Shown: positions 1,697 to 45,908, numbered from the stretch's first letter. The stretch is 64,000 nucleotides of DNA from a virus (IMGVR_UViG_3300045747_000276:161-64160), one strand, 5' to 3'. The notes: generated from the sequence alone by a model not told the origin. Numbers and translations: made by a program.

Positions 1697-2746
1697 ATGC
1701 CTTTGTGGTTAGATGCGCAGTATGCAAAATTAATGGGGCACCGGTTAGAGGGTTGGCAGGTCAAGTTAGATAGTGGCGGCAAGTTCGCTGCAAACTTCAG
1801 GTGCCCCTTATGTGGTGACTCACAAAAAAACAAGTCAAAGAAACGTGGTAACTTCTTCACGCAAGAGAATGACGTTTATTTTAAGTGTTTCAATTGTATG
1901 CCTGACCAGGCATTGCACTTTGGTACATTCTTAAAAGACCAAGACCATTACTTATATCAGCAGTATGCTGTGGAACGGTATAAGCAGAACACAGATGGTC
2001 ATACACACACCAAAAAAGATATAGATTGGTCTGTTAAAATACTTAAGGTCGAACCTACCCTTAAATCCCAGGATATCCTTAAAGGAACAACTTGTGTTGA
2101 GGATCTGCCTAAAGGTCACCCAGCATTGGATTATGTAATCAATAGACAGATTCCAGAGCAGTATTGGGCAGAGATATTTTACGCACCTAAATTCATGGCA
2201 TGGGCATCAACAAACTCTGATAGGTTCAATCTCAAAGAAGGTGCCAAAGATCATCCTAGGCTTATAATCCCATGGTTTGACACAGATTTCAAAATATTCA
2301 CATATCAAGCAAGGGCCTTTGGAAAAGAAACTCCAAAATACTACACTATAAATGTTGAGACTAAAACTAACAAGTATTTTGGAGAAAATAGGTTAAACCC
2401 CAATCGCAGGGTTTATGTGGTTGAAGGTCCAATAGACTCGTTCTTTTTACCAAATTCTGTGGCGGTGGGATCATCAGCGCTAACATTATTTGATGAAAAA
2501 GGCATGGATGTGATATATTGTTATGACAATGAGGCCCGAAATAAGGAAATAGTCCATATCATTGAAAAATGTATCCTAGAAGGCAAAAAAACAGTTCTTT
2601 ACCCAGATAATTACATATACAAGGATATAAATGATGCAGTTGTTAAAGGTGGTATGTCTCCTAAGGACATCGTTAAGATGTTAGATGAAAATACATACAG
2701 TGGTTTGAGAGCGAGAATGAAATTTAATGATTGGAGAAAAGTATGA
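1697..2746 (+). CDS. gp61: DNA primase (T4 gp61-like)
   Basis: Zn finger 'NFRCPLCGDSQKNKSKKRG...YFKCFNC'; TOPRIM motifs 'VVEGPIDS', 'YDNE', 'KDIND'. Confidence 0.95.
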   Translation: MPLWLDAQYAKLMGHRLEGWQVKLDSGGKFAANFRCPLCGDSQKNKSKKRGNFFTQENDVYFKCFNCMPDQALHFGTFLKDQDHYLYQQYAVERYKQNTDGHTHTKKDIDWSVKILKVEPTLKSQDILKGTTCVEDLPKGHPALDYVINRQIPEQYWAEIFYAPKFMAWASTNSDRFNLKEGAKDHPRLIIPWFDTDFKIFTYQARAFGKETPKYYTINVETKTNKYFGENRLNPNRRVYVVEGPIDSFFLPNSVAVGSSALTLFDEKGMDVIYCYDNEARNKEIVHIIEKCILEGKKTVLYPDNYIYKDINDAVVKGGMSPKDIVKMLDENTYSGLRARMKFNDWRKV

Positions 2747-2955
2747 AAACGTATAAGTTTGAAAGTTATGATGAAGATTCAAATGTCAAAACAGTCGTAG
2801 AGTTCGATACAGAATCAGATATGTGGTCTGGGTACGAGGGTCCAATGTATAACTTCTTCAATTTCCTTAAGGGAAGTGGGTTTGTGTTTGATCTGGAAGA
2901 TAGTATTGGGATTATGCAGGGCAACGGCGATTTCAAAGCTGCTGCTGAGGGTTAA
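2743..2955 (+). CDS. Hypothetical protein
   Basis: Short ORF packed between primase and thyX. Confidence 0.6.
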   Translation: MKTYKFESYDEDSNVKTVVEFDTESDMWSGYEGPMYNFFNFLKGSGFVFDLEDSIGIMQGNGDFKAAAEG

Positions 2956-2956
2956 T

Positions 2957-3817
2957 ATGAGTGAAGTTAAATTGGTGTCGGTTTCCCACTCAAGAAACAT
3001 TGAGGGTGTCAAAACTGCAGAGGAATTCATTGCTTATACTGCAAGGGTGTCGAACCCAACGAATCAGATTAACAATGAAACTGCGCCTAAGCTATTGGCG
3101 TATTTAGTCAAACACTCCCATTGGAGTCCGTTTGAGATGGTTAATGTGTGTATTGAAATTAAGACTACTAGAGATATAGGTCGTCAAATTTTGAGGCACA
3201 GGTCATTTTCATTCCAAGAATTCAGTCAGAGATATGCTGAAGTGAATGATAACTTCGAGTTTCGTGAAGCGCGAATTCAGGATTTAAAGAATAGGCAGAA
3301 CAGTTTGCCTATTGATAATGATTCTACATTGAGTGGTGTATGGGAAGAAATACAGCGAAAGGTTGCTATTCAAGCTAGGGATTCCTACAATAAGGCAATT
3401 GAATTGGGTATTGCCAAGGAACAAGCTAGGGCGGTCCTTCCCGAAGGTATGACAAAGAGCACAATGTATATGTCTGGTACATTGCGGTCATGGATTCACT
3501 ATTGTCAACTTAGAATGGCGAATGGTACACAATTGGAACATCAATTAGTTGCAATTGCGTGTTGGAAAATCATCACAGAGGAATTTCCGTCCCTTAATAC
3601 TCTCATTGAACACGATACTGAAAAATCTGCAGAACCCGTAAAAACAGGAGTGCCAGAGCAGATCAACAAATCTGCATTTTTCTCTATGATGGACGAGTGG
3701 GCCCAAGCTAACCTACCACCTATTCCTAAAAATTGGAGAGATGCAAAGTTACCTGATGAAAAACCACCAGCTAAATGGGATCAGATGGGTGGAGTTCCTG
3801 TGAGTAGTGTTCAATGA
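2957..3817 (+). CDS. thyX: Flavin-dependent thymidylate synthase with C-terminal extension
   Basis: 'HWSPFE' and 'RQILRHRSFSFQEFSQRY' ThyX motifs; likely start MSEVKLV at 2957. Confidence 0.95.
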   Translation: MSEVKLVSVSHSRNIEGVKTAEEFIAYTARVSNPTNQINNETAPKLLAYLVKHSHWSPFEMVNVCIEIKTTRDIGRQILRHRSFSFQEFSQRYAEVNDNFEFREARIQDLKNRQNSLPIDNDSTLSGVWEEIQRKVAIQARDSYNKAIELGIAKEQARAVLPEGMTKSTMYMSGTLRSWIHYCQLRMANGTQLEHQLVAIACWKIITEEFPSLNTLIEHDTEKSAEPVKTGVPEQINKSAFFSMMDEWAQANLPPIPKNWRDAKLPDEKPPAKWDQMGGVPVSSVQ

Positions 3818-4464
3818 AGATAGAAACCGTTAGTGGGGTAAAGTTCAATACATTTACACCTGACCCAAATGATGTCAGGTTAGATGATATTGCGTGGGCA
3901 ACTAGTAGAATGCCCAGATTCGCTGGCCACACTATTCCTATGCTACCATATTCTGTTGCACAGCATGCTGTCGCTGTGTCTAACGAACTTCTTCGGATGT
4001 TTGATAGTGGTGCATATGATCAATATGGTGAGGAAATGTCATCTTTGATTTATGATTACCTTGATATGTATAATTTCGATGCAAAATTGAAATTCAAAAT
4101 GGCTATGCACGGATTAATGCACGACGCTGCAGAGGCATATATTGGAGACATCCCATCACCGGTGAAACATCTTCCTGGGTTATGTGATGCGATCAAATCC
4201 ATTGAAGACGGTATTCTTAAAGCTATATATACATCATTCAAAATAGAATATCCTACAGAAGAAGAGTGGGTGTTCATACATCATGCAGACATGGTCCAGC
4301 GCACCATCGAAGCATATAATTTCATGCATAGCAGAGGAAAAGATTGGGGTGATCTACCTGACGTATCTTTACGGCGACTTCAGGCATTCAACCCACCTAT
4401 GCCGTCGATCCAGGCATATGATGAGTTTTTAGAAAAGTTTAGATATTTGAGAGGAAAAATATGA
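3814..4464 (+). CDS. HD-domain 5'-deoxynucleotidase (YfbR-like)
   Basis: 'RFAGH...YSVAQH...LMHDAAEAYIGDIPSPVK'. Confidence 0.85.
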   Translation: MKIETVSGVKFNTFTPDPNDVRLDDIAWATSRMPRFAGHTIPMLPYSVAQHAVAVSNELLRMFDSGAYDQYGEEMSSLIYDYLDMYNFDAKLKFKMAMHGLMHDAAEAYIGDIPSPVKHLPGLCDAIKSIEDGILKAIYTSFKIEYPTEEEWVFIHHADMVQRTIEAYNFMHSRGKDWGDLPDVSLRRLQAFNPPMPSIQAYDEFLEKFRYLRGKI

Positions 4465-5012
4465 GTTTAGATGTGAGACAACCAACGACATTTAGGAATG
4501 TGCCTATGCAAACAGCGGCGGCACAACAAGAGAACAAGATGCCTTCTCCAGAGGAAATGCGAAGCATGATTCCAAAGGCACCAGTCCGTGTCATTAACAA
4601 ATCCAAACACCCTTTACCACAATATGAAACCAGTGGTGCATCTGGTATGGATGTAAAAGCAAATCTGGAAACAGACAAGATGATGATTTCATCAGGTGAA
4701 ACTGCTTTGGTTCCCACAGGTCTGTTTGTTGAAATTCCACCAGGTCTTGAAATTCAAGTTAGACCAAGAAGTGGTATGTCATTGAAGACAAAGATGCGAG
4801 TATGCAATAGCCCAGGAACAATCGACTCTTGCTATCGTGGCGAGGTTAAAGTCATTATGGAGAACACTGGGGTGGAACCGTTTGCAATTAACGACGGTGA
4901 CCGAATCGCACAATTAGTATTGTGCCCTGTCATTCAAGTTCAATGGCAAGAGACCGAAACATTGTCTGAAACAGACCGTGGTGTAGGTGGTTTCGGTAGT
5001 ACTGGCAAATAA
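4461..5012 (+). CDS. dut: Trimeric dUTPase
   Basis: 'SGMD', 'RPRSG', 'PGTIDSCYRGE', 'RIAQLV', 'RGVGGFGSTG'. Confidence 0.95.
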   Translation: MSLDVRQPTTFRNVPMQTAAAQQENKMPSPEEMRSMIPKAPVRVINKSKHPLPQYETSGASGMDVKANLETDKMMISSGETALVPTGLFVEIPPGLEIQVRPRSGMSLKTKMRVCNSPGTIDSCYRGEVKVIMENTGVEPFAINDGDRIAQLVLCPVIQVQWQETETLSETDRGVGGFGSTGK

Positions 5013-5032: not shown

Positions 5033-7576
5033 ATGACACGTTTTATTGAACCCTTCGCAGAAGAAATCTGGAATCAAACATACAAAGATCATAATGACAA
5101 AGACATTAATGACAATCTACGAAGAGTTGCTAAAGCAGTAGCTTCGGTAGAGACAACTGAGATTGATAAAATCAAATGGGGGCAATTGTTTTATGATTTA
5201 TTGACGGATTTTAAGGGTACTTGTGGTGGAAGAACATATTCAAACGCTGGTACAGAATGGAAGGGAACAACGCTATTAAACTGTTTTGTTTCACCTAGAT
5301 CGACCTCAGACATTGATTCATTAGACGTTATCATTGACGATCTGAAAAATCAGGCATTCACTCTAAAATCAGAGGGTGGTTGGGGTCAGAATTTCAGCTG
5401 GATCCGTCCTAGAGGTTCATTTATTGCTGGTGTTGGTGTTGAGACACCAGGTGCAGTAAAGTACATGGAGCTTTACGACAAAGCATCAGAAATCATTACT
5501 GCTGGATCAGGTAAAAAGAGCACAAATAAGAAGTCCAAAGGTAAGATCCGCAAGGGTGCTATGATGGGTGTTCTAGACGTGTGGCATCCAGATATTGTTG
5601 AATTTGTTACTGCCAAACAGAGTTCTGGTAGACTGACAAAGTTTAACATATCAGTTAATTTCACAAATGAATTTATGCAACGGTTGGATAAAATCAATGA
5701 GTTGAATCCTATTGATGACGCAGTTGAGATTGCAAAATTAGATGAATGGGAATTGAAATTTCCTGACACTTCATTTGAAAAGTACAAGAATGAATGGGAC
5801 GGCAATATAAAGACTTGGGAATCTAATGGGTACCCAATTGAAAAATATCAAACTATCTCTGTTAAGTGGTTGTGGAATTTGGTTATGGAATCCACATATA
5901 ACAGAGCAGAACCTGGTGTTCTATTCTTAGATAGAGCCAACGAGTTCAATCCATTGTATTATGGTGAAACGATCATAGCAACAAATCCTTGTGGTGAACA
6001 AACTCTGGCTCCAGGTGGTGTTTGCTGCCTGGGGTCATTGAACCTGACACAGTTTATTTCAGCAGATAATGAATTTGATCTTGTTAAGTTGACAAAATAC
6101 ACCAAGATTATGGTTCGGTTCTTAGATAATGTAAATGAATATTCAAATGCACCTCTACCAGAATACATTGATTCTATGCGTAACAAACGTCGTATTGGTA
6201 TTGGTGTTCTAGGTTGGGGATCTGCATTGTTCATGCTTAAAACTAGATTCGCATCCCCTGCTGCTGCGGTTTTGCGTGATCAGGTCATGAGCACTATTGC
6301 CAAGGCATCATATGAAGCATCTATTGATTTGGCAATAGAAAAAGGCATGTTTAAATACTGTGACCCATCAAAACATGCAGCAGGCAAATTTGTAAGTTCA
6401 ATTGGTCTATCTGCAGGTTATATGAAGAAGTTGACGACAACAGGAATTCGCAATAGTTCTCTGCTGTCTATCCAACCAACAGGGAACACAGGTATTTTAG
6501 CCAATATGGTATCCGGCGGATTAGAACCAATCTTTATGCCTGAATATGTTAGAACAGTAACAGTGGGCAAAGTGCCAGATGATATGCTATCATTTACACC
6601 AAAGTGGTATGAAGGTGCATGGCAAGAAACAGACGTATTTAAATTCACTAAGGAAGGTGATGAAGAAATTTTGAAAGCTGTTGTAGATGGTACAACATAC
6701 AAAATTGATAAAAATCGTGGATTGACAAAAGAAGTTGCTTGTATTGATTATGGTGTTCGTTGGTTAAAAGACAACAATCTATGGGAAGAAAACGCAGCTT
6801 GGGCAGCAACAGCCCTTAATGGTCTCACCGCAGAAGATCATCTGAATGATTTGATTGGGTTCGCTCGCTGGGTGGATTCGGCAATGTCAAAAACAATCAA
6901 TGTACCTAATGATTATTCGTTTGAAGATTTTAAAAACATCTATATGACTGCTTATCATTCAGGTGTGGTAAAAGGTGTTACAACATATAGGTCAGGTACT
7001 ATGACAGCTGTTTTGTCATCAAAAGAGAGCACCACTAATGGATATGATGAAGAAGTCATTTTAGACACAGTCAAAATGTCAGACTCAGCAGATGCATCAA
7101 TGAAGGTTCTTAGGGCAGAAGGTAGGAAATGGTACTTGACAGTGGTCTGGAATGAAACTAAGAGCAGGCCACAAGCATTGTTCGTTCATACCAATCATCA
7201 CGAGAAGACTGTACCAACGCACGATGCCTCTGACAAGATGATTCAACTTGCTAGGGACAAAGGAATTCCACAAAAGTTCATTGATGATGTAGAATCCAAA
7301 GTGTCGTCTGATACAAATACTACAAAGTTGACACGAATTATTTCATTGCTGTTACGGCATGGTGTGTTGATCAAGAATATTGTGGCAGTGCTCGACAGAG
7401 TAGATGGTGTATTTGTTGGAACCTTCTTGTTTCAGATCAAGAAATTCCTAAGCTCTTTTATCAAAGACGGCGAGAAGGTTGAAGGTGAGCTTTGTCGAGA
7501 ATGTGGATCAGATAAAGTTGTTTTCCGTGAGGGTTGCAAAATCTGTGTTTCTTGTGGCTCGAGTAGGTGCGGGTGA
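5033..7576 (+). CDS. nrdJ: Adenosylcobalamin-dependent (class II) ribonucleotide reductase
   Basis: 'TNPCGEQ', 'SIQPTG', 'KGVTTYR', C-terminal Cys-rich tail; no nrdB nearby. Confidence 0.85.
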   Translation: MTRFIEPFAEEIWNQTYKDHNDKDINDNLRRVAKAVASVETTEIDKIKWGQLFYDLLTDFKGTCGGRTYSNAGTEWKGTTLLNCFVSPRSTSDIDSLDVIIDDLKNQAFTLKSEGGWGQNFSWIRPRGSFIAGVGVETPGAVKYMELYDKASEIITAGSGKKSTNKKSKGKIRKGAMMGVLDVWHPDIVEFVTAKQSSGRLTKFNISVNFTNEFMQRLDKINELNPIDDAVEIAKLDEWELKFPDTSFEKYKNEWDGNIKTWESNGYPIEKYQTISVKWLWNLVMESTYNRAEPGVLFLDRANEFNPLYYGETIIATNPCGEQTLAPGGVCCLGSLNLTQFISADNEFDLVKLTKYTKIMVRFLDNVNEYSNAPLPEYIDSMRNKRRIGIGVLGWGSALFMLKTRFASPAAAVLRDQVMSTIAKASYEASIDLAIEKGMFKYCDPSKHAAGKFVSSIGLSAGYMKKLTTTGIRNSSLLSIQPTGNTGILANMVSGGLEPIFMPEYVRTVTVGKVPDDMLSFTPKWYEGAWQETDVFKFTKEGDEEILKAVVDGTTYKIDKNRGLTKEVACIDYGVRWLKDNNLWEENAAWAATALNGLTAEDHLNDLIGFARWVDSAMSKTINVPNDYSFEDFKNIYMTAYHSGVVKGVTTYRSGTMTAVLSSKESTTNGYDEEVILDTVKMSDSADASMKVLRAEGRKWYLTVVWNETKSRPQALFVHTNHHEKTVPTHDASDKMIQLARDKGIPQKFIDDVESKVSSDTNTTKLTRIISLLLRHGVLIKNIVAVLDRVDGVFVGTFLFQIKKFLSSFIKDGEKVEGELCRECGSDKVVFREGCKICVSCGSSRCG

Positions 7577-21054: not shown

Positions 21055-21104
21055 GTTGCAATAAAAAAATGCCTGTGTTATCATAGGCATATATAATACA
21101 ACAA

Positions 21105-21148
21105 AGAGATAGACTCAATGTTGCCAATAATTTTAAAGGATATTTAAA
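21105..21148 (+). promoter_or_regulatory. NAD-gene leader motif, copy 1 (GAG-ATAGA-CTC hairpin plus TTTTAAAGGA RBS)
   Basis: AGAGATAGACT recurs at about 22476 and 24409, each time ahead of an NAD gene start. Confidence 0.6.
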
Positions 21149-22177
21149 ATGACAAATTATGACACACTAGTTTTAATAGGGCGCTTTCAGCCCGTACACA
21201 ATGCACACGCAGAGATAATAGCCAAAGCCATCAATATGGCCAAACAGGTTATTGTGATCGTGGGATCGGCAAAACAACCCAGAACATATAAGAACCCATG
21301 GACTAGCCATGAACGTGTATTGATGCTGAACAATGTGGTTGATGATATGCTACCAAAGCTACCCACCAAAACAGTTAGGGTAGAAGAAAATGTAGATACT
21401 GTCTACAATGACCAATCATGGGCAGCCAGAATACAAGCCATAGTATCTAAACACACTATGCCAGGTGATAACATAGGTATCATTGGGCACACTAAAGATG
21501 ATACTAGTTATTATCTTAGTATGTTCCCCCAGTGGGGATTTGTTGAGGTGAATCTTATCCAGCCTCTAAATGCAACTAATATTAGGGATTTGTATTTTAG
21601 GAAAAACGCTAACATGAATTTCATTCGTGGTGTTGTTCCTCCAGTAGTAACAAGAATGCTTGAATCCTGGAAAGATACTCCAGATTATAATCAGATAATA
21701 AAAGAACGTGAGTTTGTTGATGATTATAAGAAACAGTATTCATCCTTACCATACGCTCCAGTTTTTGTAACTGTTGATGCTGTGGTTGTTTGTGCAGGAC
21801 ATGTATTGATGGTTAAACGAAGAAGTGAACCTGGTAGAGGCCTATGGGCAATGCCAGGCGGGTTCTTAAACGCTGCAACGGACAGAATCATTCGTGACGC
21901 AATGATAAGGGAACTTAGAGAAGAGACAATGATCAAGGTCCCAGGGCCTGTCCTTGTGGGAAGTATAACACGGTCAATGGTATTTGATGCTATTGATAGG
22001 AGTGCTAGGGGTCGAACAATTACACATTGTTTTAAGATCGACCTTCCACCAGGTGAATTGCCTAAAGTTAAAGGATCTGATGATGCAGAAAAGGCACAAT
22101 GGATTCCTATTGCATCAATAAATTCATCTACTTGCTTCGAAGATCATTTTGAGATTATAACAACCATGCTAGGATAA
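21149..22177 (+). CDS. nadM: Bifunctional NMN adenylyltransferase / Nudix ADP-ribose pyrophosphatase
   Basis: 'IGRFQPVHNAH'; Nudix box 'PGGF...MIRELREET'; 'GSDDA'. Confidence 0.93.
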   Translation: MTNYDTLVLIGRFQPVHNAHAEIIAKAINMAKQVIVIVGSAKQPRTYKNPWTSHERVLMLNNVVDDMLPKLPTKTVRVEENVDTVYNDQSWAARIQAIVSKHTMPGDNIGIIGHTKDDTSYYLSMFPQWGFVEVNLIQPLNATNIRDLYFRKNANMNFIRGVVPPVVTRMLESWKDTPDYNQIIKEREFVDDYKKQYSSLPYAPVFVTVDAVVVCAGHVLMVKRRSEPGRGLWAMPGGFLNAATDRIIRDAMIRELREETMIKVPGPVLVGSITRSMVFDAIDRSARGRTITHCFKIDLPPGELPKVKGSDDAEKAQWIPIASINSSTCFEDHFEIITTMLG

Positions 22178-22468
22178 ATTATGAAGTATAAAGCAACAAT
22201 TTTGAGTATATCTGTTCATCCAGATAACGAAAACCCAGTATTTGGCGAACGATCAACCCATATTACAGTGGACGATGAAGCTGGAGGGCCCTTCTTGAAA
22301 CTCATTCAATGTAATGATCAGATTACGTCAGGGGAGATCAGGGTTGACTTTGGAGAGATGGAAGTTATATATGCTACATCAAAAATATTGAGTTCGCAAT
22401 TTGACACAAAAGAAAATTCAATGTAAAATTAAATTGAGGTAAAAGTAGGTGTCCTTACAATGACATTA

Positions 22469-22516
22469 AAGTCCTAGAGATAGACTCGAGGCATATTAAT
22501 TTTAAAGGAGCTTTAA
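22469..22516 (+). promoter_or_regulatory. NAD-gene leader motif, copy 2
   Basis: aagtcctagagatagact...aggca...ttttaaaggagctttaa. Confidence 0.65.
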
Positions 22517-23218
22517 ATGAAAAATTCAATTATACTTGACACGGATTCCTATAAGGTATCAATGTGGAAACAGTACCCTAAAGGTACCGAATATGTATAC
22601 TCTTATATCGAATCACGCGGTGGTAAATATGACCGAACAGAATTCCTCGGTGTGCAGGCACTAGCTAAGTATCTAGCAACACCCATTACACAGGAACAAA
22701 TTGATTATGCAGATAAAATCTGGACTGCTCACGGAGAACCGTTCAATAGAGCCGGGTGGCAGTACATCTTGGATGTCTATCAAGGAAAATTACCCCTACG
22801 CATCCGCGCGGCTAAAGAGGGACTTATCATCCCAACCAAAAATGTCCTCTGCACAATCGAAAATACTGATCCAAAATGTTTCTGGCTTACAACTTGGGTT
22901 GAAACGGCAGCACTCAGAGCAATTTGGTATCCTACAACTGTCGGAACTACATCTTGGCACATAAAGCAAGAAATTCTAAACTACTTGGAGATGTCAGGTG
23001 ATCCTACCCTTATTAGTTTTAAGCTTCACGATTTTGGTGCCCGGGGTGTTAGTTCTCTCGAATCTGCAGGAATTGGTGGGGCGGCGCACCTGGTTAATTT
23101 TATGGGTACGGATACTATGTCTGGTGTTCTTCATATCATTGATGTATACGGAGGCGATGTGGTGGGGTTCTCGATCCCAGCAAGTGAACATTCAGTTGCA
23201 TGTAGTTACGGAAAATAA
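22517..23218 (+). CDS. nadV: Nicotinamide phosphoribosyltransferase, N-terminal half
   Basis: 'DTDSYK', 'LHDFGARG', 'GTDT', 'IPASEHS'; stops just after SEHS. Confidence 0.92.
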   Translation: MKNSIILDTDSYKVSMWKQYPKGTEYVYSYIESRGGKYDRTEFLGVQALAKYLATPITQEQIDYADKIWTAHGEPFNRAGWQYILDVYQGKLPLRIRAAKEGLIIPTKNVLCTIENTDPKCFWLTTWVETAALRAIWYPTTVGTTSWHIKQEILNYLEMSGDPTLISFKLHDFGARGVSSLESAGIGGAAHLVNFMGTDTMSGVLHIIDVYGGDVVGFSIPASEHSVACSYGK

Positions 23219-23273
23219 AAACAGTGCTCCGTAGCAGAAATCGCATAAATACATTATAGAGGAATACACTATT

Positions 23274-24410
23274 ATGCTTTATACGATTTACAAAATTACG
23301 AATAAAATGACAGGTCAGATTTATATTGGGCAACACATTACTGATAATTTGAATGACGGTTATATGGGTTCGGGCAGTAGAATCATAAACTCGGTTGCAA
23401 AATATGGAAAAGACCAATTTGATAAAGAAATTCTGTTTGTGTTTGATAATTTTGATGATATGGACCGAAGCGAGGCTGAATTAGTAAATGAAGAATTTAT
23501 TAAACGACCTGACACATATAATGTAGTATTGGGCGGAACAGGTTGGTGCAGCAAAGGAACTGTTACTGTAGAAGATTTATTAAATCCAGGCATTTTTATT
23601 AGGATACCAACTGACCATTTTGATTCTAAAATCCATAGGTATCCAACTTCAGGTTCGGTACAGGTTTACTTAAAAACAACAGGTGAGAAAATCAGAGTTA
23701 ATATGGAAGAATACAGAACTAATAAATCTCTGTATAATGCTGTATCAACCGGTAAGGTATCTATTAGAAACATAAAGACAGGAAAAACTTCTTCTATTGT
23801 AGTGTCGGAGTTTGATCCAAAAATTCATGAAAAAGTCCTTGGTGGTATCGTGGCAGTAAAAGAAGGTATTAAACAATACGTATCAAAGGAAGAATTTGTG
23901 CATAGTGGGTTGCAGGGTGTGCACAAGGGAAAAATAACCGCGGTAGATAAAGAAACAGGAGTTAAAAAGCACATAACACAGGCTGAATATTATGCAGATA
24001 AAAATAGATATTTACCCAATGGTTCAGGAACCACTTTAGTGAAAGATAAGTCGACCGGTAAACGGTATAGAATAGCTACTGAGTTAGTCGATAACACGCA
24101 GCATGTAGTAGGAACATCTGGGTGGGCTACAGTATACGACATAGCATTAGGTAAATTTTTAAATATCACTAAAGGAACAATAGATAATAGTAAACACAAA
24201 CGAGCTAGTGATAAGAAGTTTGTTTGCTACAATCCAGATGGTACAATTAAATTTGAATTTTGGGGCGGAAAGCAAGAATTTTTGGGAAGATATAAATGTC
24301 CTGCAAGCGTATGGGAATCTGCAGTAAAAGGAAATACATTTAAATCAGACAGAGCAGGTAGTAAGGATTTTAATGGGTGTAATTTTGTGCTCATTGATTG
24401 GAAGTCCTAG
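23274..24410 (+). mobile_element. Free-standing GIY-YIG (Seg-like) homing endonuclease splitting nadV
   Basis: 'YTIYKITN...YIGQH...DGYMGSG'; repeated C-terminal units; CATAAATA late-promoter-like site at 23244-23251. Confidence 0.88.
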
Positions 24411-24451
24411 AGATAGACTTTAGGCAATTTTATTTTTAAAGGAGCTTTAAA
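24402..24451 (+). promoter_or_regulatory. NAD-gene leader motif, copy 3 (near duplicate of copy 2)
   Basis: An identical 18-mer aagtcctagagatagact and an identical ttttaaaggagctttaaa. Confidence 0.7.
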
Positions 24452-25201
24452 ATGAGTGAAAGACAATATGTGTTAAATATGATAGAACAGTTTGCAAAAC
24501 CAGGAGCAATTTTTGCCATGGTAGCAGACTCATACAACATCTATAATTTTTGTGAGATGTTAGGTGACGATTTAGAGATTAAGGAGAAAATAGATGCACA
24601 CAGACTTACTGGGGGGTTTACTGTTATCCGCCCTGATTCTGGCGATCCTGTTGAAGTATTGCCGAAGATGTTCAAGATTCTTGGAGAAAAGTTCGGATTC
24701 ACTAAAAATGAAAAAGGATACAAAGTCCTTAACAGTGTCAGAGTTATATGGGGAGATGGCATTGACAGCAGTTCTCTTTCTACTATTCTTCGGACTGTTG
24801 TTGATGTTGGAGGCTGGTCTGCTGACAACATAGCATTCGGTATGGGTGGTGGGCTGTTGCAACAATGCAACCGTGACACCCTTGAGTTTGCTATGAAGGC
24901 ATCTGCGGTTGGTGTTCGTGAATGGGTTGAAGATGGTGATCTTGGTTCTGGATGGAAACTTGTATTCCGCGATGTGTTTAAAGACCCAATTACTGCATCA
25001 AACAAAGCATCTAAGAAGGGTAAGGTAAAACTTTGGACTAACAACGCCGGCGAATTTTATACAAGTGTAAATGAACCAACAGGATGGACTGATAAGGGGG
25101 TATATGGTGGCTGGCAAGATGCTATGGAAACATACTTTTTAGATGGTGCTGTAATGTTTACACAAACCTTTGAAGAAGTTCGGAACAATACAAGGAGTTA
25201 A
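24452..25201 (+). CDS. nadV: Nicotinamide phosphoribosyltransferase, C-terminal half
   Basis: 'VADSY', 'IRPDSGDP', 'GDGI', 'FGMGGGLLQ..NRDT..FAMK', 'KDPIT..NKASKKG'. Confidence 0.92.
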   Translation: MSERQYVLNMIEQFAKPGAIFAMVADSYNIYNFCEMLGDDLEIKEKIDAHRLTGGFTVIRPDSGDPVEVLPKMFKILGEKFGFTKNEKGYKVLNSVRVIWGDGIDSSSLSTILRTVVDVGGWSADNIAFGMGGGLLQQCNRDTLEFAMKASAVGVREWVEDGDLGSGWKLVFRDVFKDPITASNKASKKGKVKLWTNNAGEFYTSVNEPTGWTDKGVYGGWQDAMETYFLDGAVMFTQTFEEVRNNTRS

Positions 25202-25208
25202 ATAGTAA

Positions 25209-25685
25209 ATGATTGAAGTTAAGGCACCAAATAGATCTGGGTGGGACGCACCATGTTCTGTATTTCTGGGTGGGTCAATAGAGATGGGAAAAGCATCTGA
25301 TTGGCAAGATAAATTAAAAAATGATCTTGCTCAATACAATGTTGTTCTATTTAATCCAAGGAGAGAATATTGGGATTCGTCAATGGTTCAATCAATATCC
25401 AACCCAGAATTTAATGAGCAGGTATCATGGGAATTGGAACACATCGAACTCGCTGATCTAGTGGTGTTTTATTTTGACCCATTGACACAGTCCCCAGTAA
25501 CATTGATGGAAGTTGGGCTCTGCGCAGGACTTGGCAAGGCATCTGATGTTATTGTGTGTTGCCCAGACGGATACTTTCGCAAGGGGAACTTGGAAATTGT
25601 GTGCTCTAGGTATGGTATGCCAATTCTAGAAACTTATAATTCGCTTGTTGAGACACTACATCAAAGGTTATCATACTACAATTGA
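25209..25685 (+). CDS. Nucleoside 2-deoxyribosyltransferase-like protein
   Basis: 'VFLGGSI...WQ...FNPRR...QVSWEL...SPVTLMEVG'. Confidence 0.8.
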   Translation: MIEVKAPNRSGWDAPCSVFLGGSIEMGKASDWQDKLKNDLAQYNVVLFNPRREYWDSSMVQSISNPEFNEQVSWELEHIELADLVVFYFDPLTQSPVTLMEVGLCAGLGKASDVIVCCPDGYFRKGNLEIVCSRYGMPILETYNSLVETLHQRLSYYN

Positions 25686-25710
25686 CATTTAAGTCATAAA
25701 TATGTATAAT
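25682..25710 (+). promoter_or_regulatory. Sigma70-type early promoter
   Basis: TTGACA-17 nt-TATAAT directly before a tRNA. Confidence 0.85.
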
Positions 25711-25721
25711 TGATACATGAA

Positions 25722-25797
25722 GCAACTCTAGCATAATGGTTATTGCCGAGAACTCATAATTCTTACGATCCGGGTTCGAGTCCCGGGGGTTGCACCA
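25722..25797 (+). tRNA. tRNA with CAT anticodon (Met or Ile2)
   Basis: Cloverleaf; gagaa-CTCATAA-ttctt; TTCGAGT T-loop; ACCA end. Confidence 0.9.
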
Positions 25798-25953
25798 ATT
25801 TTTTATTTTTATATTATGAATGTGATAGAGTTAATTACGGCTCTTGGCAACAAACAGTTGCATTTTTCAAATTCTCGGCAGGTGATGTGCTTAACATCAC
25901 CTAAGTGGTATCATTGTATCACCAGTCCAGATAAAACAGCTAAAGGATCTAGA

Positions 25954-42711: not shown

Positions 42712-42797
42712 GGACGTGTAGGAAAATTGGTAACCCCAGAAGACTGTAAATCTTCCGCCTCACGGCATTGTTGGTTCGACCCCAACCGCGTCCACCA
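42712..42797 (+). tRNA. tRNA-Tyr(GTA)
   Basis: gaaga-CTGTAAA-tcttc; long variable arm; ACCA. Confidence 0.9.
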
Positions 42798-42803
42798 AAC
42801 AAT

Positions 42804-42878
42804 GTCGCATTAGACTTCTAGTGAGGTCATCAGCCTTTCACGCTGACCAGACGGGGGCAGAACCCGTATGCGACTCCA
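42804..42878 (+). tRNA. tRNA-Glu(TTC)
   Basis: tcagc-CTTTCAC-gctga; atypical T-loop GGCAGAA; TCCA. Confidence 0.85.
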
Positions 42879-42889
42879 GACAAATTAAT

Positions 42890-42958
42890 GGGCTTACCGA
42901 ATGGGTCGGGAAAGACACTTGCAATGTCATGCTTGCGGATCGTTACCGCATAGGTCCA
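42890..42958 (+). tRNA. tRNA-Ala(TGC)
   Basis: gaca-CTTGCAA-tgtc; G3.U70 pair; no encoded CCA. Confidence 0.7.
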
Positions 42959-42999
42959 CACAGAGTGAATTTTGCATAAATACATGTAAGGAGGACAAG

Positions 43000-43582
43000 A
43001 TGTTCTATTATTTGTATGAGATAACCAATAAGGTTAATGACAAAATTTACGTAGGGGTGCATAAGACATCAGATTTGAATGATGGTTTATATGGGCTCTG
43101 GAAAGATAATTCAGCATGCAATTGCAAAGCATGGTGTACTGAATTTTTCTAAAGTCATACTAGAGCATTTTGATACATCAGATGCTATGTATGCAAGAGA
43201 AGCAGAATTGGTGAATGCCGAATTCTTAGAAAGAGATGACGTGTATAACCTCCGTAGAGGAGGACATGGCGGGTTTGATTACATTAACAAATATTGTGGT
43301 AATCAGGGTATCCGGATGAATTCACACATGTCTAATGAGACCAGACGCAAGGGTGCATTTAAAATGATTGAAATATGTAAACGTGACGGATTGGGTGTTT
43401 ACTCAGATTCCAGAATAAACATATTTAAAGATAAATCATTCCAAGATGAAATGACAAATAGGGCCAGAATTCATAATATGGGTTCTAAATGGGTCACTAA
43501 TGGTATAGAGAATAGAAAAATAAAGAAAGATGTTTTGATACCTGATGGGTGGAAATTAGGTAGAGTCATTAAGCCGCTGTAG
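43000..43582 (+). pseudogene. Frameshifted GIY-YIG homing endonuclease
   Basis: MFYYLYEITN..YVGVH..DG then YMGSG in another frame (one extra T near 43087); CATAAATA at 42975. Confidence 0.8.
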
Positions 43583-43647
43583 TCCTCGGGGAGGGCAGTT
43601 GATTGTCTATCAATATCAGGTGGGTTCGAGTCCCATCAGCGGCGCCA
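43573..43647 (+). tRNA. tRNA-Asp(GTC)
   Basis: gttga-TTGTCTA-tcaat; GCCA. Confidence 0.85.
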
Positions 43648-43652
43648 ATATT

Positions 43653-43735
43653 AGGATGAATTCAGCAACCAATTAAAATCTGTCTGTGGTTTTCGATTTT
43701 CCACTTAAATAAAAAGTAGGTATTCATCCTGTTAA
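43653..43735 (+). ncRNA. TCAGCAA-box structured RNA, copy 4
   Basis: aggatgaat-TCAGCAA...attcatcct-GTTAA (perfect 9-bp stem). Confidence 0.7.
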
Positions 43736-43860
43736 AATCAATCGGAGTAATTGACCGAAAAGTAAATGTTGATCATCTTGGCTATTTGGGTGATCCATGC
43801 AGTGTTACACAGCTATGAAAAGACGGGGTAAGAATCCTCACGTAAAGTATGCAGAAATAT

Positions 43861-43939
43861 TGACCGTAAGTCGACAAGGTGTTAGGCGCCTCGCTGTTAA
43901 CGAGGAATAAGTTAGGTTCGATTCCTAAACGGTCAGCCA
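43861..43939 (+). tRNA. tRNA-Asn(GTT)
   Basis: cctcg-CTGTTAA-cgagg; GCCA. Confidence 0.88.
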
Positions 43940-43944
43940 ATTAT

Positions 43945-44038
43945 TTCCCAGTTTACCTCACATCGCGCGAGAGGCAATGGAGTCACATATTTTATATGTG
44001 TGCGGACAACATGAGTTCAATTCTCATCTGGGAAGCCA
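43945..44038 (+). ncRNA. Atypical tRNA-like RNA (TTT at anticodon position)
   Basis: Acceptor ttcccag/ctgggaa-GCCA; T-arm atgag-TTCAATT-ctcat; enlarged D region. Confidence 0.65.
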
Positions 44039-44133
44039 ATTTTGTAGTTACAAGGTTATCTGCACCACAATGTTAAGCAGATCTACAAATTATAGTGTAT
44101 TATAGTCAATTATAGTATATTTTAATTTGTATT

Positions 44134-44207
44134 GCCCGGTTAATTAAAAAGTATAATATTCGCCTGATAAGCGAAATTCAGAGGAGCGTTACCTCTACTG
44201 GGTACCA
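44134..44207 (+). tRNA. tRNA-Ile(GAT)
   Basis: ttcgc-CTGATAA-gcgaa; T-loop AGCGTTA; ACCA. Confidence 0.82.
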
Positions 44208-44215
44208 ACGATAAT

Positions 44216-44290
44216 ATCCCCATAGTTCAATGTATAGAATAGAAGTTTCCTAAACTTTAGGTCAGGGTTAGATTCCCTGTGGGGGTTCCA
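44216..44290 (+). tRNA. tRNA-Arg(CCT)
   Basis: gaagt-TTCCTAA-acttt; TCCA. Confidence 0.82.
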
Positions 44291-44295
44291 AATAA

Positions 44296-44355
44296 AGAAT
44301 GCGTTCAGCAAACAAAAAAATTCAACTTTTAATTGAAAAATAAGCATTCTGTTAA
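44296..44355 (+). ncRNA. TCAGCAA-box structured RNA, copy 5 (carries a Lys-UUU anticodon stem-loop mimic)
   Basis: agaatgc.t-TCAGCAA...ttcaa-CTTTTAA-ttgaa...gcattct-GTTAA. Confidence 0.72.
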
Positions 44356-44359
44356 TTTT

Positions 44360-44433
44360 CTCGGTGTGGTGAAATGGTATCACTCTTGGTTTGGGACCAA
44401 GGAGCGAAGGTTCGATTCCTTCTACCGAGACCA
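44360..44433 (+). tRNA. tRNA-Pro(TGG)
   Basis: cttgg-TTTGGGA-ccaag; ACCA. Confidence 0.9.
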
Positions 44434-44560
44434 GTTATGGACGAAAGACGCGAAAGCGGTTTAGTATGTCCACCAAGTTTTGTAGTTTGATCGGTCAGAT
44501 CATGTTAAAGGCGATGCGCATCTTAATGATAATATGTGCAGCCTACTACAGGTTGATTAT

Positions 44561-44631
44561 TGCGGGGATTCAGGGTATCGGCAAGTCTCATAAGCTCGGC
44601 CTAGGTGTTTCGAGTACACCCTCCGCTTCCA
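44561..44631 (+). tRNA. Degenerate initiator-like tRNA-Met(CAT)
   Basis: 1:72 mismatch; CTCATAA loop; weak anticodon stem; TCCA. Confidence 0.6.
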
Positions 44632-44636
44632 ATAAT

Positions 44637-44710
44637 AGTGCATTAGGCTAAAAGAAAACCATGTGTCTCATAAGCACAATTCGATGGAGCGTTACCATCA
44701 TGCACTACCA
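44637..44710 (+). tRNA. tRNA with CAT anticodon (Met or Ile2)
   Basis: tgtgt-CTCATAA-gcaca; ACCA. Confidence 0.82.
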
Positions 44711-44716
44711 AACAAT

Positions 44717-44803
44717 GCGAGTTGTGGTGGAACGGTATACACTCCAGACTTAAAATCTGGCGCCCGTAAGGGATTGAGGGTTCAAGTCCCTCCACTCGTA
44801 CCA
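44717..44803 (+). tRNA. tRNA-Leu(TAA)
   Basis: ccaga-CTTAAAA-tctgg; long variable arm; ACCA. Confidence 0.88.
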
Positions 44804-44809
44804 AATTGT

Positions 44810-44886
44810 GCACCGTTCGTATAACGGCTTATTATACATGGCTCTTAACCATGGAGATCTGGGTTCAAATCCCAGGCGGTGCACCA
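44810..44886 (+). tRNA. tRNA-Lys(CTT)
   Basis: catgg-CTCTTAA-ccatg; ACCA. Confidence 0.9.
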
Positions 44887-44892
44887 AACAAT

Positions 44893-44967
44893 GGCTCGAT
44901 CATATAATGGTCATTATCGCGGATTGTCTATCCGTAGATCGCAGTTCGATTCTGCGTCGGGTCGCCA
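44893..44967 (+). tRNA. tRNA-Asp(GTC)
   Basis: gcgga-TTGTCTA-tccgt; GCCA. Confidence 0.88.
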
Positions 44968-44974
44968 ATATTAT

Positions 44975-45050
44975 TCTTCGATAGCTCAGTTGGTAGAGCC
45001 TTTGACTGTTAATCAAAATGTCCGTGGTTCGAGCCCACGTCGAGGAGCCA
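44975..45050 (+). tRNA. tRNA-Asn(GTT)
   Basis: tttga-CTGTTAA-tcaaa; GCCA. Confidence 0.92.
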
Positions 45051-45076
45051 GAATAACAATAAAAGCAAGAAATTAT

Positions 45077-45150
45077 GCGGGTATGGTATATGGTTTGTGC
45101 CCTAGCCTTCCAAGCTATAGAATCCGGTTAGAGTCCGGATACCCGCTCCA
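45077..45150 (+). tRNA. tRNA-Gly(TCC)
   Basis: tagc-CTTCCAA-gcta; TCCA. Confidence 0.85.
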
Positions 45151-45156
45151 AACAAT

Positions 45157-45231
45157 GCATCCAGAGCCAGTCAGCACAGGCACTCGTCTGCAAAACGAGG
45201 TAATAGAGGGCAGCACTCTATGGGTGTTCCA
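45157..45231 (+). tRNA. tRNA-Cys(GCA)
   Basis: ctcgt-CTGCAAA-acgag; T-loop GGCAGCA; TCCA. Confidence 0.8.
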
Positions 45232-45245
45232 GATAGGTAAATGAT

Positions 45246-45509: not shown

Positions 45510-45585
45510 GCAACTTTAGCTGATGTGGTCATAGCGGTGTCTTGAAGCGGCATTGAAGTAGGTTCGATTCCTACAGGTTGCACCA
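45510..45585 (+). tRNA. tRNA-Phe(GAA)
   Basis: gtgtc-TTGAAGC-ggcat; ACCA. Confidence 0.82.
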
Positions 45586-45590
45586 AATAT

Positions 45591-45676: not shown

Positions 45677-45682
45677 AATAAT

Positions 45683-45756: not shown

Positions 45757-45763
45757 GTGATAA

Positions 45764-45840: not shown

Positions 45841-45844
45841 ATAT

Positions 45845-45880: not shown

Positions 45881-45908
45881 TTTCATAAATAACATATAGG
45901 AGACGAAT

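Follow-up and report, generated by a model that had tools for sequence, protein, structure and literature searches.

Endonuclease-split enzyme genes named in the available text of a review are nrdA, 39/60 and 43 (PMC2988022). In phage Aeh1, where mobE divides nrdA, the two resulting polypeptides assemble into an active enzyme (PMC3045599; PMC2988022), and its activity depends on tails that arose through the insertion (PMC3045599). Gene 43 of Aeromonas phage 25, with seg43(25), and genes 39 and 60 of T4, with mobA, are likewise split at the homing endonuclease gene (HEG) and their halves reassemble (PMC2988022). Separately, the NARP2 pathway, in which a Nampt acts with an Nmnat/Nudix enzyme (NadV and NatV in phage KVP40), has been reported to counter NAD-depleting defence systems (bioRxiv 10.1101/2024.02.11.579819). 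The Nampt described there is a single chain, whereas that of the virus analysed here is encoded as two halves. The words 'split', 'endonuclease' and 'promoter' are absent from the text of bioRxiv 10.1101/2024.02.11.579819, and the available text of this preprint and of PMC5107563, PMC9503650 and PMC6715854 is silent on a split nadV, although supplementary tables might list such genes.

In the window, by which we mean the whole stretch of 64,000 nt of viral DNA that was analysed, nadV evidently consists, as first reported, of an N-half gene and a C-half gene parted by a free-standing GIY-YIG endonuclease gene (Table 1). ORF, Pfam and PHROG analyses confirmed the positions of all three genes and the stop of the Nampt reading frame just after SEHS; the flanks, put at about 55 and 40 nt in the initial annotation, measure 55 nt and 41 nt (the latter 24411-24451). 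The N-half carries the motifs DSYK, GARG, GTDT and SEHS and ends in ...PASEHSVACSYGK, its stop lying 7 residues past SEHS, while the C-half carries RPDSGDP, GDG, GMGGG and KDP. Residues 4-233 of the N-half align with residues 20-251 of the bacterial Nampt structure 7yqo_A (E 6.8e-79), and residues 8-245 of the C-half with residues 259-475 (E 1.2e-44). The insertion point falls between codons 233 and 234, 8 residues past the catalytic-site His of the EHS motif and approximately after human Nampt residue 255, in a numbering read from alignment ranges.

Table 1. Features of the split nadV locus and its surroundings (positions in the window).
Feature	Position	Strand	Details
natV-leader hairpin	21096-21124	+	R1 covariance-model match with filters off, E 0.016; fold z -2.65; loop GATAGAC 21108-21114
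natV	21149-22177	+	Pfam CTP_transf_like + NUDIX; NMN adenylyltransferase fused to Nudix domain; adjoins nadV
Sigma-70-like promoter candidate	22434-22461	+	TTGAGG-16-TACAAT; 9 of 12 in consensus scan
Native nadV leader	22469-22516	+	R1 match 44 bits, E 1.7e-11; hairpin arms 22473-22478 / 22486-22491, loop GATAGAC 22479-22485
nadV N-half	22517-23218	+	233 aa; Pfam NAMPT_N and NAPRTase profile positions 1-59 of 239
Upstream cassette-type (co-converted) flank	23186-23218	+	...SEHSVACSYGK, then stop
Spacer, N-half stop to HEG	23219-23273	+	55 nt; block TGCTCYGYRGCA; late-promoter-like CATAAATA (23244-23251); HEG RBS in weak hairpin
GIY-YIG homing endonuclease gene (HEG)	23274-24410	+	378 aa; PHROG 314
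Cassette-borne nadV leader copy	24402-24451	+	R1 match 43.3 bits; AAGTCC, hairpin, GGCA, SD hairpin; arms 24406-24411 / 24419-24424, loop 24412-24418
nadV C-half	24452-25201	+	249 aa; NAPRTase profile positions 61-221
Downstream cassette-type (co-converted) flank	24452-24610	+	MSERQYVLNM...FAKPGAIFAMVADSY...FCEMLGD...TGGF

The gene is single in relatives and takes the form of two ORFs flanking the HEG here. Of 80 related loci, 77 have an undivided nadV, in which exactly 24 nt (8 codons) separate the N-half end from a C-half match starting at residue 9, and 3 nt from one starting at residue 2. The halves therefore abut on intact NadV, and the split has neither lost nor added residues; the NAPRTase profile positions of the two halves (1-59 and 61-221) abut in the same way. 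A tally of locus records, not de-duplicated by contig, gave 158 contiguous and 8 separated. Contigs of two runs agree with the assembly: one of 3,250 nt from run X1, possibly the sample from which the window came, matches 22962-25300 without a difference, and a contig of run X2, from a second study, is identical to the window over 23148-23339, crossing the N-half stop and the HEG start. None of the DNA contigs of the compared runs joins across the cassette.

As regards gene arrangement, the parallel with Aeh1 drawn in the initial annotation is supported: in both cases a free-standing HEG interrupts a metabolic enzyme gene in a conserved part near the active site and leaves two ORFs, each with its own translation signals, without an intron or intein. 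The Aeh1 endonuclease is nevertheless of the HNH type and that of nadV a Seg-like GIY-YIG enzyme. Unlike the Aeh1 subunits, the halves in the window carry no added tail residues, junction residues having been replaced instead; insertion-derived tails are equally lacking in the split alleles L011 and L096, and short or long tails occur in other split alleles. The nadV cassette further differs in carrying a copy of its target gene's own regulatory leader, and it is found in many lineages, whereas the Aeh1 split is reported for that phage only in the texts consulted. Activity has been demonstrated for the Aeh1 enzyme and is presumed for the split Nampt. Like T4 segA-G, the endonuclease gene is free-standing and its N-terminal ~90 aa are ~60% identical to Seg-like genes, and it shows the presence/absence polymorphism with co-conversion of flanking markers described for free-standing endonucleases (PMC2988022). 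Seg genes are normally intergenic and cut a neighbouring gene, whereas this HEG sits inside its presumed target. In seg43(25) and mobA other enzymes are targeted, and no captured leader is mentioned for them in the available text of PMC2988022. In common with NARP2 loci, the window encodes a Nampt and an adjoining NMN adenylyltransferase. With Nampt making up half of this two-enzyme anti-defence pathway, its split and its regulation bear on the conflict between phage and host.

The endonuclease product matches PHROG 314, 'homing endonuclease', at E 2.5e-31, and Pfam SegE_GIY-YIG at 23.4 bits, just below the curated 25-bit cut-off. Its residues ~1-90 form a Seg-like nuclease domain, ~60% identical to annotated Seg-like HEGs of T4-like phages, and the C-terminal ~280 aa had zero full-length matches in cultured phages (50,697 phage records). 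Against the same records, megablast of 22100-25700 returned zero matches and blastn only the GIY-YIG domain and one piece of nadV. A search of viral contigs with the single HEG sequence gave zero matches; relatives were found by a search with an alignment of two HEGs, and the full-length ones occupy the same nadV site. A model of the cassette's origin predicts a HEG just upstream of an intact nadV leader, an arrangement absent among the relatives searched.

The same insertion, at the same nadV codon, is present in three other phage lineages, with HEGs 70% (L010/L011/L012/L086), 72% (L096, a 323-kb contig) and 55% (L270) identical to that of the window. The spacer block TGCTCYGYRGCA is conserved among the window, L011 and L096, and the spacer after the N-half of L270 is different and 28 nt long. 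Among N-half-sized proteins, the best 120 of 1,261 at E<=1e-20 were examined, and ~45 of these, read by eye, end at the split site; automatic labelling gave 34 short-tail and 10 long-tail proteins, with two long-tail and one short-tail (P0077) misfiled and three labelled 'other' also ending there. On the other side of the junction, 23 of the best 120 C-half-sized proteins, the window's included, begin MS(E/Q)(K/R)(Q/K)Y..., followed by ...VADS(Y/F), and eight N-half/C-half pairs apparently lie on the same contigs, to judge by longest contigs of equal size. Among the 30 loci listed by a metagenome scan with the junction peptide, L270 was the one split allele that was new, and a DNA pattern for the HEG 3' end, CTCATTGATTGGAAGNCC, had 12 matches, 8 of which were chance matches in unrelated DNA. 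The split nadV allele is widespread in environmental phages, and the insertion is a mobile cassette rather than a local accident. Annotation pipelines may be calling the two halves truncated genes.

Comparison of the flanks indicates how the cassette travels. The junction reads AEHST(I/V)TSWGR in all 77 intact loci and SEHS(V/I)xx(S/A)(Y/F)G(K/R) in all split forms. The closest relatives of the window, L004-L007 and L023, have an intact nadV. Over residues 1-213 the window is 87-93% identical to its closest intact relatives; over residues 234-285, however, it is only 43-49% identical to them and 64% to the split allele L011. Identity thus switches at approximately residues 224-285, and the window shows a co-conversion tract of ~30 nt upstream and ~155 nt downstream of the insertion. 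When the last 25 aa were removed from 23 split N-halves, the best match was an intact allele in every case (23/23), with a split allele among the three listed matches in 4. A tree of 74 rows requires the split label to change 17 times, and starred branches force at least 5 of these changes; an AU test comprising 25 split and 46 intact rows rejects the grouping of all split alleles in one clade (delta lnL 461.9, p 6.1e-5). The split alleles are therefore scattered over the nadV tree, and the cassette has moved between lineages. With dozens of lineages, co-existing intact alleles and HEG-less derivatives, NadV joins the endonuclease-split enzymes, and a complete life cycle can be followed in its natural variants: the cassette invades, spreads with co-conversion of its flanks, loses its endonuclease and leaves the gene permanently split.

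We consider it probable, at roughly 85%, that nadV was brought into a two-gene form by this mobile cassette and that its separately made halves form one Nampt protomer. The cassette comprises, in order, the N-half stop, a spacer with the translation signals of the HEG, the HEG itself, a copy of the nadV leader overlapping the HEG end, and an ATG. From the sequence we infer that neither RNA nor protein splicing takes place in vivo, so that polypeptides of 233 and 249 aa would be made separately and would fold into a single protomer whose active site needs both. This split Nampt would work with NatV as a NARP2-type NAD reconstitution pathway. During co-infection the endonuclease probably cuts intact nadV within the conserved AEHSTITSWGR-coding stretch, and repair would copy the cassette with the ~30 nt and ~155 nt of adjoining nadV, a cleavage-resistant junction being carried along. 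The captured leader would keep the C-half translatable downstream of the HEG, probably under the control that acts on nadV and natV.

Several observations favour continued function of the halves. Between three cassette lineages, pS is saturated (0.72-0.88) and pN ranges from 0.16 to 0.32 over the N-half, HEG and C-half: the HEG has pN 0.16-0.20 against pS 0.72-0.88, the two halves pN 0.25-0.32 against pS 0.75-0.81, and the first 52 C-half codons pN 0.14-0.15. Purifying selection thus acts on all three ORFs, in keeping with the earlier remark that both halves look intact. In structure prediction the complex of N-half and C-half scored 0.94 (best control 0.40), a mark that 58 of 80 solved complexes attain, as do 2 of 110 mismatched pairs; runs agreed in at least 98% of contacts and the partner pLDDT was 91. 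Since single-chain Nampt structures have been solved, this result speaks for likeness to Nampt and is no independent evidence of binding. The two polypeptides would come together as a working enzyme, and the natural split site could guide split-enzyme or fragment-complementation designs.

A different relationship between the halves would hold if the 1.2-kb insert were a self-splicing group I or II intron bearing the HEG, with a mature mRNA encoding single-chain NadV. Phage GIY-YIG endonucleases are often intron-encoded (I-TevI and I-TevII; PMC2988022, Table 1), and intron sites are commonly found in conserved active-site regions such as the one interrupted here. Against this, no intron family of Rfam 15 matched at E<=10 in window positions 22000-25800 or at E<=1 in L011, L096 and L270, models that may miss degenerate or ORF-interrupted introns; this result in all four cassettes, with the colinear halves, bears out the initial description of the HEG as intron-less. 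Outside the ORF there are only 55 + 41 nt (28 + ~45 nt in L270), an in-frame stop closes the upstream exon in every lineage, and SD, ATG and an MSE(K/R) start are conserved at the head of the downstream piece, as seen in 23 of the best 120 C-half-sized proteins of the database. In the 3' spacer the leader of the nadV mRNA, and not an intron 3' end, can be recognised as a copy, and in the HEG-less allele L312 nadV still forms two overlapping ORFs. We regard an intron as highly improbable, and joining of the halves after translation by a split intein as close to negligible. Such 'fractured gene' arrangements, with an endonuclease between the halves, are known in metagenomes (PMC2677866), but intein fragments would have no room here, the N-half end and C-half start being adjacent on intact NadV, and Pfam detects only Nampt domains in the halves and zero Hint/intein domains. 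Neither an intron nor an intein was thus found around the HEG in the four cassettes.

It is also conceivable that the insertion inactivated nadV and that the halves are decaying pseudogene fragments or lack a joint function. NARP2 is accessory rather than essential, and the KVP40 operon is reported to be metabolically costly and toxic in E. coli, so that its loss may be tolerable (bioRxiv 10.1101/2024.02.11.579819). Such decay is nonetheless very unlikely in view of the low pN of both halves beside saturated pS: both halves are open in every split lineage seen, both retain the motifs aligned to solved Nampt, eight pairs apparently co-occur on contigs, and the hairpin of the cassette-borne leader is kept through compensatory changes. 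A separate question is the order of events, as nadV might have been split earlier by an unrelated event and its spacer later invaded by the endonuclease, a scenario raised for gene 43 and seg43(25) of Aeromonas phage 25, where the untranslated spacer may predate the endonuclease (PMC2988022). In L312 the HEG is lost and nadV still split, and at least 8 proteins among the best 120 of N-half size bear similar long tails. However, a piece of the HEG 3' end survives in L312, whose stop and start codons overlap: its N-half tail ends CSFTLIDW, coded by ...CTTATTGATTGGA..., and the HEG of the window ends NFVLIDW, coded by ...CTCATTGATTGGA.... Because the tail matches the last HEG codons, L312 looks like a deletion derivative of the cassette and not its ancestor. 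Moreover, the HEG is present in four of the five split lineages whose DNA was inspected, the exception being this scar allele, and all split forms have the junction signature in common. An earlier, unrelated split is therefore unlikely, though less so than loss of function, and we retain the cassette as the agent that divided nadV.

The initial annotation also described a duplicated leader serving the C-half. The copy is real: 47 of 53 aligned columns from AAGTCC to the ATG are identical to the native leader, and the 64,160-nt record holds exactly two copies of the 17-mer AGTCCTAGAGATAGACT. With up to 3 mismatches this 17-mer has 4 matches in the window, against 0.10 expected, a number reached in none of 100 shuffles. 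The duplication did not, however, arise recently within this genome, the copy being part of an old mobile cassette. It is the region most conserved at the nucleotide level across three cassettes, and the cassette leader of L096 keeps a GATAGAC-loop hairpin though the phage's own nadV leader has a different loop. The native leader runs AAGTCC, hairpin, GGCA and then an SD within an A/U hairpin (TTTAAA-GGAGC-TTTAAA) abutting the ATG; in the copy, the HEG stop TAG (24408-24410) falls inside the 5' arm of the hairpin. Only three R1 matches below E 0.05 occur in the 64 kb, all at natV or nadV, the natV-leader loop starting 41 nt before the natV ATG.

In viral contigs the strict hairpin motif has 105 exact matches, 99 of them preceding nadV or its C-half, and the hairpin is also found in the cultured Synechococcus phage B23. 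Across 39 distinct leader segments, pairing in the hairpin is 83.5%, against 60.9% in shuffles (0/500 reach this value), 59 cells have changed on both sides against 17.8 expected, and slid controls are 20-39% paired. The arms of the cassette hairpins covary in all four copies (CCTAGA/TTTAGG, CCTGAA/TTCAGG, CCCGAA/TTCGGG and CATAAA/TTTATG). The hairpin, a G-C-closed AUAGA pentaloop on a covarying stem, thus appears to be a previously undescribed motif of nadV and natV leaders in many phages. Rfam cis-regulatory RNAs, including NAD riboswitches, had zero matches over 22400-22520 or 24390-24455 at E<=10, and none of the top literature matches for GAUAGAC is on phage or NAD regulation in its available text.

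Short hairpins serve as operators on phage mRNAs in the T4 gene 43 translational operator and lambda boxB. The nadV hairpin resembles these in its short stem, conserved loop and position near the RBS or 5' end, features suggesting that a protein recognises it, and differs from them in its loop (G-AUAGA-C) and its gene set (nadV, natV). It may tentatively be read, at rather less than even odds, as an RNA operator dedicated to a phage regulon for NAD salvage, made up of nadV, natV and a few small neighbours, and captured with the RBS by the cassette. Were this so, the hairpin would be read by a protein of the phage or host, or conceivably by a metabolite of the pathway, and a costly process that consumes PRPP would thereby be limited; the broken gene would stay expressed and co-regulated, the selfish element compensating its own damage; and HEG-less scar alleles would be the end state, with the enzyme permanently in two pieces. 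The hairpin, being specific to NAD-salvage genes, offers a direct experimental handle on the regulation of a pathway reported to be costly or toxic (bioRxiv 10.1101/2024.02.11.579819). Immediately before the C-half leader a sigma-70-like promoter is not evident, and the hairpin at that position would therefore lie inside a polycistronic RNA, whereas native leaders have it at the predicted 5' end; its role may differ between the two positions. Since L312 has no leader at all, C-half expression can do without the hairpin.

Other identities considered for the hairpin fared poorly. The C-half leader copy was flagged as terminator-like, but most relatives have no U-tract after the hairpin, and an intrinsic terminator was rejected as a general reading. 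A palindromic DNA operator was likewise rejected, the arms varying freely yet staying complementary and the conserved part being the asymmetric loop. PeSL-type promoter/stem-loop cassettes of T4-type phages occur in many copies across the early regions of a genome; this hairpin has three matches in 64 kb, all at natV or nadV, and is not such a generic cassette.

Two smaller features of the initial annotation stood in part. A stem bracketing the first stop codon exists, GTTACGGA (23205-23212) pairing with TCCGTAGC (23228-23235) in 8 pairs, one of them G-U, but its fold is unremarkable (z -1.71; 17 of 200 shuffles fold as well) and it is absent in L011 (z +0.73). The late-promoter-like site ascribed to the HEG is likewise present, as CATAAATA, in three of the four cassettes inspected and absent in L270; it stays a candidate by pattern match, TATAAATA being found 6 times in the window against 5.76 expected, a count that gives no evidence of the phage using such late promoters. 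Upstream of the native leader, the predicted start of the sigma-70-like candidate (~22468) coincides with the leader's first base. TTGACA-N17-TATACT stands at the same distance in relatives, and it is exactly upstream of 22468/22469 that contigs of relatives part from the window sequence. A further promoter-like site, at 21056-21084, lies just upstream of the natV-leader hairpin.

The initial annotation's reading of nadV, the Nampt gene, as two ORFs arranged around an endonuclease gene was confirmed: Nampt halves of 233 and 249 aa (the N-half and C-half) flank a 378-aa GIY-YIG ORF. The junctions are reproduced without any difference by contigs of two sequencing runs, one of which belongs to a different study. 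Endonuclease-split enzyme genes are established elsewhere, as nrdA/mobE in Aeh1, 39/60/mobA in T4 and gene 43 in phage 25 (PMC3045599, PMC2988022). NadV and NatV, the NMN adenylyltransferase/Nudix partner, constitute the NARP2 counter-defence pathway, which its authors call costly because PRPP is consumed (bioRxiv 10.1101/2024.02.11.579819). Searches of article texts returned neither a split nadV nor a nadV/natV leader hairpin in print. The record (64,160 nt, CheckV completeness ~36%) also encodes, within the window, primase, ribonucleotide reductase, RNA ligase and 29 tRNA genes, the last mostly in one cluster, with nearly all genes on the + strand. In three runs, contigs of related phages begin to match the window only at the nadV leader's first base (22468/22469) and diverge upstream of it, so that the predicted nadV transcription start is also a mosaic boundary.

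Features of the split nadV locus and of related loci on other phage contigs (L handles)
Sequence	Feature	Coordinates	Strand	Remark
Window	natV	21149-22177	+	flanks split nadV on upstream side
Window	81-aa ORF	22181-22426		between natV and nadV; no Pfam match
Window	Nampt N-half	22517-23218	+	
Window	GIY-YIG endonuclease	23274-24410	+	
Window	Nampt C-half	24452-25201	+	
Window	nucleoside 2-deoxyribosyltransferase-like gene	25209-25685		directly after C-half; PF15891, E 7.7e-34
Window	tRNA genes	42712-52645; 25722-25797		
Window	leader hairpins	21096-21124; 22465-22499; 24398-24432		
L269	leader hairpins	2443-2477; 659-693		
L312	N-half; C-half	3471-4268; 4261-4956		split nadV without endonuclease
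L052	hairpin-preceded small ORF	2020-2346		
L083	hairpin-preceded small ORF	2881-3204		
L007	hairpin-preceded small ORF	1927-2295		
L049	hairpin-preceded small ORF	1852-2316		
L004	hairpin-preceded small ORF, 76 aa	3137-3364		largely tandem HSFI repeats
L123	intact nadV, then two Seg-like GIY-YIG genes	2336-3151; 4001-4270; 5038-5307		
L011/L012	endonuclease-start fragment	1384-1482	-	34 codons

The division of the gene is clean. Among the 80 loci found with the C-half, a set in which, as in some other locus tallies, some contigs are counted more than once, nadV is a single ORF in 77. In most intact loci the match to N-half residue 233 is followed by exactly 8 codons and then by the match to C-half residue 9, so those 8 codons correspond to the first 8 residues of the C-half; a few loci have a C-half match that begins at residue 2, 3 nt past the N-half match. 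The N-half follows the Pfam NAPRTase profile up to position 59, and the C-half resumes it at position 61. Judged from these alignments, the split adds nothing to NadV and removes nothing from it. The flanks had been described as too short for a group I intron core, and this held: only 55 nt and 41 nt flank the endonuclease ORF, and Rfam intron families gave no match in the window's cassette, from N-half stop to C-half ATG (E<=10), or in three other cassettes (E<=1). A split intein is excluded, since neither half contains any non-Nampt domain.

Along a solved bacterial Nampt, the N-half aligns with residues 20-251 and the C-half with residues 259-475; in human NAMPT numbering the last N-half residue falls at 255 and residue 11 of the C-half at 266. 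The conserved motifs DSYK, GARG, GTDT and EHS are thereby carried on the N-half, and RPDSGDP, GDG, GMGGG and KDP on the C-half, all of which we take to have catalytic roles in Nampt. A complex of the halves was predicted with a score of 0.94 (best control 0.40; mark reached by 58 of 80 solved pairs and 2 of 110 mismatched pairs), which measures likeness to Nampt, not binding, because single-chain Nampt structures are already solved. The prediction has ~350 contacts, a partner pLDDT of 91 and between-run agreement of at least 98%. Across N-half, endonuclease and C-half, three cassette lineages differ with pS 0.72-0.88 (saturated) and pN 0.16-0.32. Saturated synonymous sites against low non-synonymous differences indicate that the split arrangement is old and that all three ORFs have been kept.

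The same cassette recurs in other phages. Full-length endonuclease relatives occupy the same codon boundary in three further lineages, namely L010/L011/L012/L086 (endonuclease and N-half each 70% identical, C-half 54%), L096 on a 323-kb contig (endonuclease 72%) and L270 (endonuclease 55%); among 50,697 records, cultured phages held no full-length endonuclease. In a 5.8-billion-protein collection, the best 120 of 1,261 N-half-sized matches were examined, and ~45 of them end at the split site (34 short-tail and 10 long-tail script labels, misfiled rows corrected by eye), while 57 are truncated intact genes. The start MS(E/Q)(K/R)(Q/K)Y..FAKPGA.FA.VADS(Y/F) is found in 23 of the 120 best C-half-sized matches, the window's own counted, and for 8 N-half/C-half protein pairs the longest contigs are of equal length. 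The four cassette lineages are only a sample of split alleles.

One allele has the split but no endonuclease. On an 87-kb contig (L312), the N-half ORF carries 21 extra codons (...CSYASIPTINLPRDCSFTLIDWINQNE), and the end of this tail matches the last codons of the endonuclease at protein and DNA level. The stop of the N-half and the ATG of the C-half overlap (ATGAATGA), and no leader precedes the C-half in this locus. Similar tails occur in at least 8 of the 120 best N-half-sized proteins. A gene still divided around an endonuclease remnant indicates that decay of the endonuclease does not reunite nadV. Such persistence speaks, from sequence, for a working two-piece enzyme and against easy reversion.

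The window's nearest relatives, L004-L007 and L023, have an intact nadV (N-half 86-91% identical), and with the junction-proximal 25 residues removed an intact allele was the best match for 23 of 23 split N-halves tested. On a 74-row tree, the split state requires 17 changes, and well-supported branches impose no fewer than 5 of these. A single clade of split alleles was rejected (AU test, p 6.1e-5), in a test run after the tree had been seen and on a group defined by the trait. Against intact relatives, the window's identity is 87-93% at residues 1-213, 78-87% at 300-382 and only 43-49% at 234-285; against the split L011 it is 64% at residues 234-285 and 51-71% elsewhere. This profile along the protein reveals a co-conversion tract. 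All split alleles have a derived junction in common, comprising SEHS(V/I)..., MSE..., VADSY, FCEMLG and a TGGF insertion. In the window the residues on the two sides of the split are SVACSYGK and MSERQYVL; they might help the halves assemble, a role that tails play in Aeh1 NrdA. At the junction, all 77 intact loci encode AEHST(I/V)TSWGR in very conserved DNA, which is a plausible candidate for the endonuclease recognition site.

A near-exact copy of the nadV leader had been noted before the C-half, and it stands: 22469-22516 and 24402-24451 agree at 47 of 53 aligned columns, and a 17-mer common to both occurs nowhere else in the record. All four cassettes retain the hairpin of this copy, which has compensatory arms (CCTAGA/TTTAGG, CCTGAA/TTCAGG, CCCGAA/TTCGGG, CATAAA/TTTATG) and a constant loop. 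In L096 the native nadV leader has the loop TCCAGAT and the cassette copy keeps GATAGAC despite this different resident loop, indicating that the copy travels with the cassette. Its nadV-type AAGTCC...GGCA flanks, seen in three of four copies (L011 with one mismatch; not in L270), point to derivation from the nadV leader, not the natV leader. The endonuclease stop codon lies inside the hairpin in every cassette, and nucleotide-level conservation peaks over the endonuclease 3' end, the leader and the first ~40 C-half codons. The window's cassette-borne hairpin and the native leader hairpin of the intact relative L007 are identical in sequence, which might be explained by gene conversion between these leaders or by a cassette origin near the window's lineage.

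The proposed late-promoter-like site of the endonuclease fared less evenly. TGCTCYGYRGCA and YATAAAT are common to the spacers of the window, L011 and L096, though not L270, so the pattern is present; TATAAATA is not enriched in the window, and the likeness to a late promoter is therefore a resemblance only. In the window and L096, folding predicts base-pairing of the endonuclease RBS/AUG with sequence immediately downstream of the YATAAAT box. This layout is similar to the late-promoter/hairpin control described for I-TevI, segB and Aeh1 mobE (PMC2988022).

Upstream of intact nadV, a fixed leader arrangement was found in 43 of the 73 loci with the start in view. A TTGACA-N17-TATACT-like promoter is followed ~7 nt on by AAGTCC, a 5-6 bp stem, the loop GATAGAC, the complementary arm and GGCA; ~20 nt past GGCA, a short A/U hairpin abutting the ATG presents the SD. 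Among 39 distinct segments, the stem is 83.5% paired (60.9% in shuffles, 20-39% in slid controls), 59 stem cells are changed on both sides versus 17.8 expected, and the closing pair (AU 17, CG 14, GC 4, UA 4) is never unpaired. ViennaRNA folds the loop as an AUAGA pentaloop closed by G-C. A covariance model gave three matches at E < 0.05 in the 64-kb window, which are both nadV leaders and the natV leader. Over 707 kb of related loci, a tally that includes repeat pulls of the same contigs, 62 of 63 hairpin matches fall on the coding strand; of the 15 matches away from nadV, 10 are followed by natV-like ORFs at a distance of 37-41 nt and 5 by small ORFs of the same cluster. In a viral-contig collection the strict nadV-type motif occurs 105 times: 98 before nadV, 1 before a C-half, 2 with too little downstream sequence and 4 before something else. 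In the cultured Synechococcus phage B23, the motif precedes nadV, and a variant with an A-U closing pair precedes natV. No Rfam family matches the motif, and we propose the G-AUAGA-C hairpin marking nadV/natV leaders in many uncultured phages as a candidate new cis-regulatory RNA.

The hairpin-preceded small ORFs of the nadV/natV cluster encode 76-155 aa, two of them (108-109 aa) with a common HTDGCGW motif. These ORFs may be part of the same regulon, or the regulator itself may be among them. Additionally, nadV neighbourhoods may attract Seg-like endonucleases: in L123, both such genes (57% and 50% identity over the nuclease domain) lie within 2 kb of the intact gene. The L011/L012 fragment, ~1.6 kb upstream of split nadV, is 65% identical to the endonuclease start. 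Finally, at 14 of the 61 + strand ORF starts examined in the window (e.g. 21149, 22517, 24452, 19208, 54407), versus 3.3 +/- 1.6 in shuffled upstream regions, a short hairpin directly before the start codon carries the SD in its loop, and the longest such stems are those of the three NAD genes.
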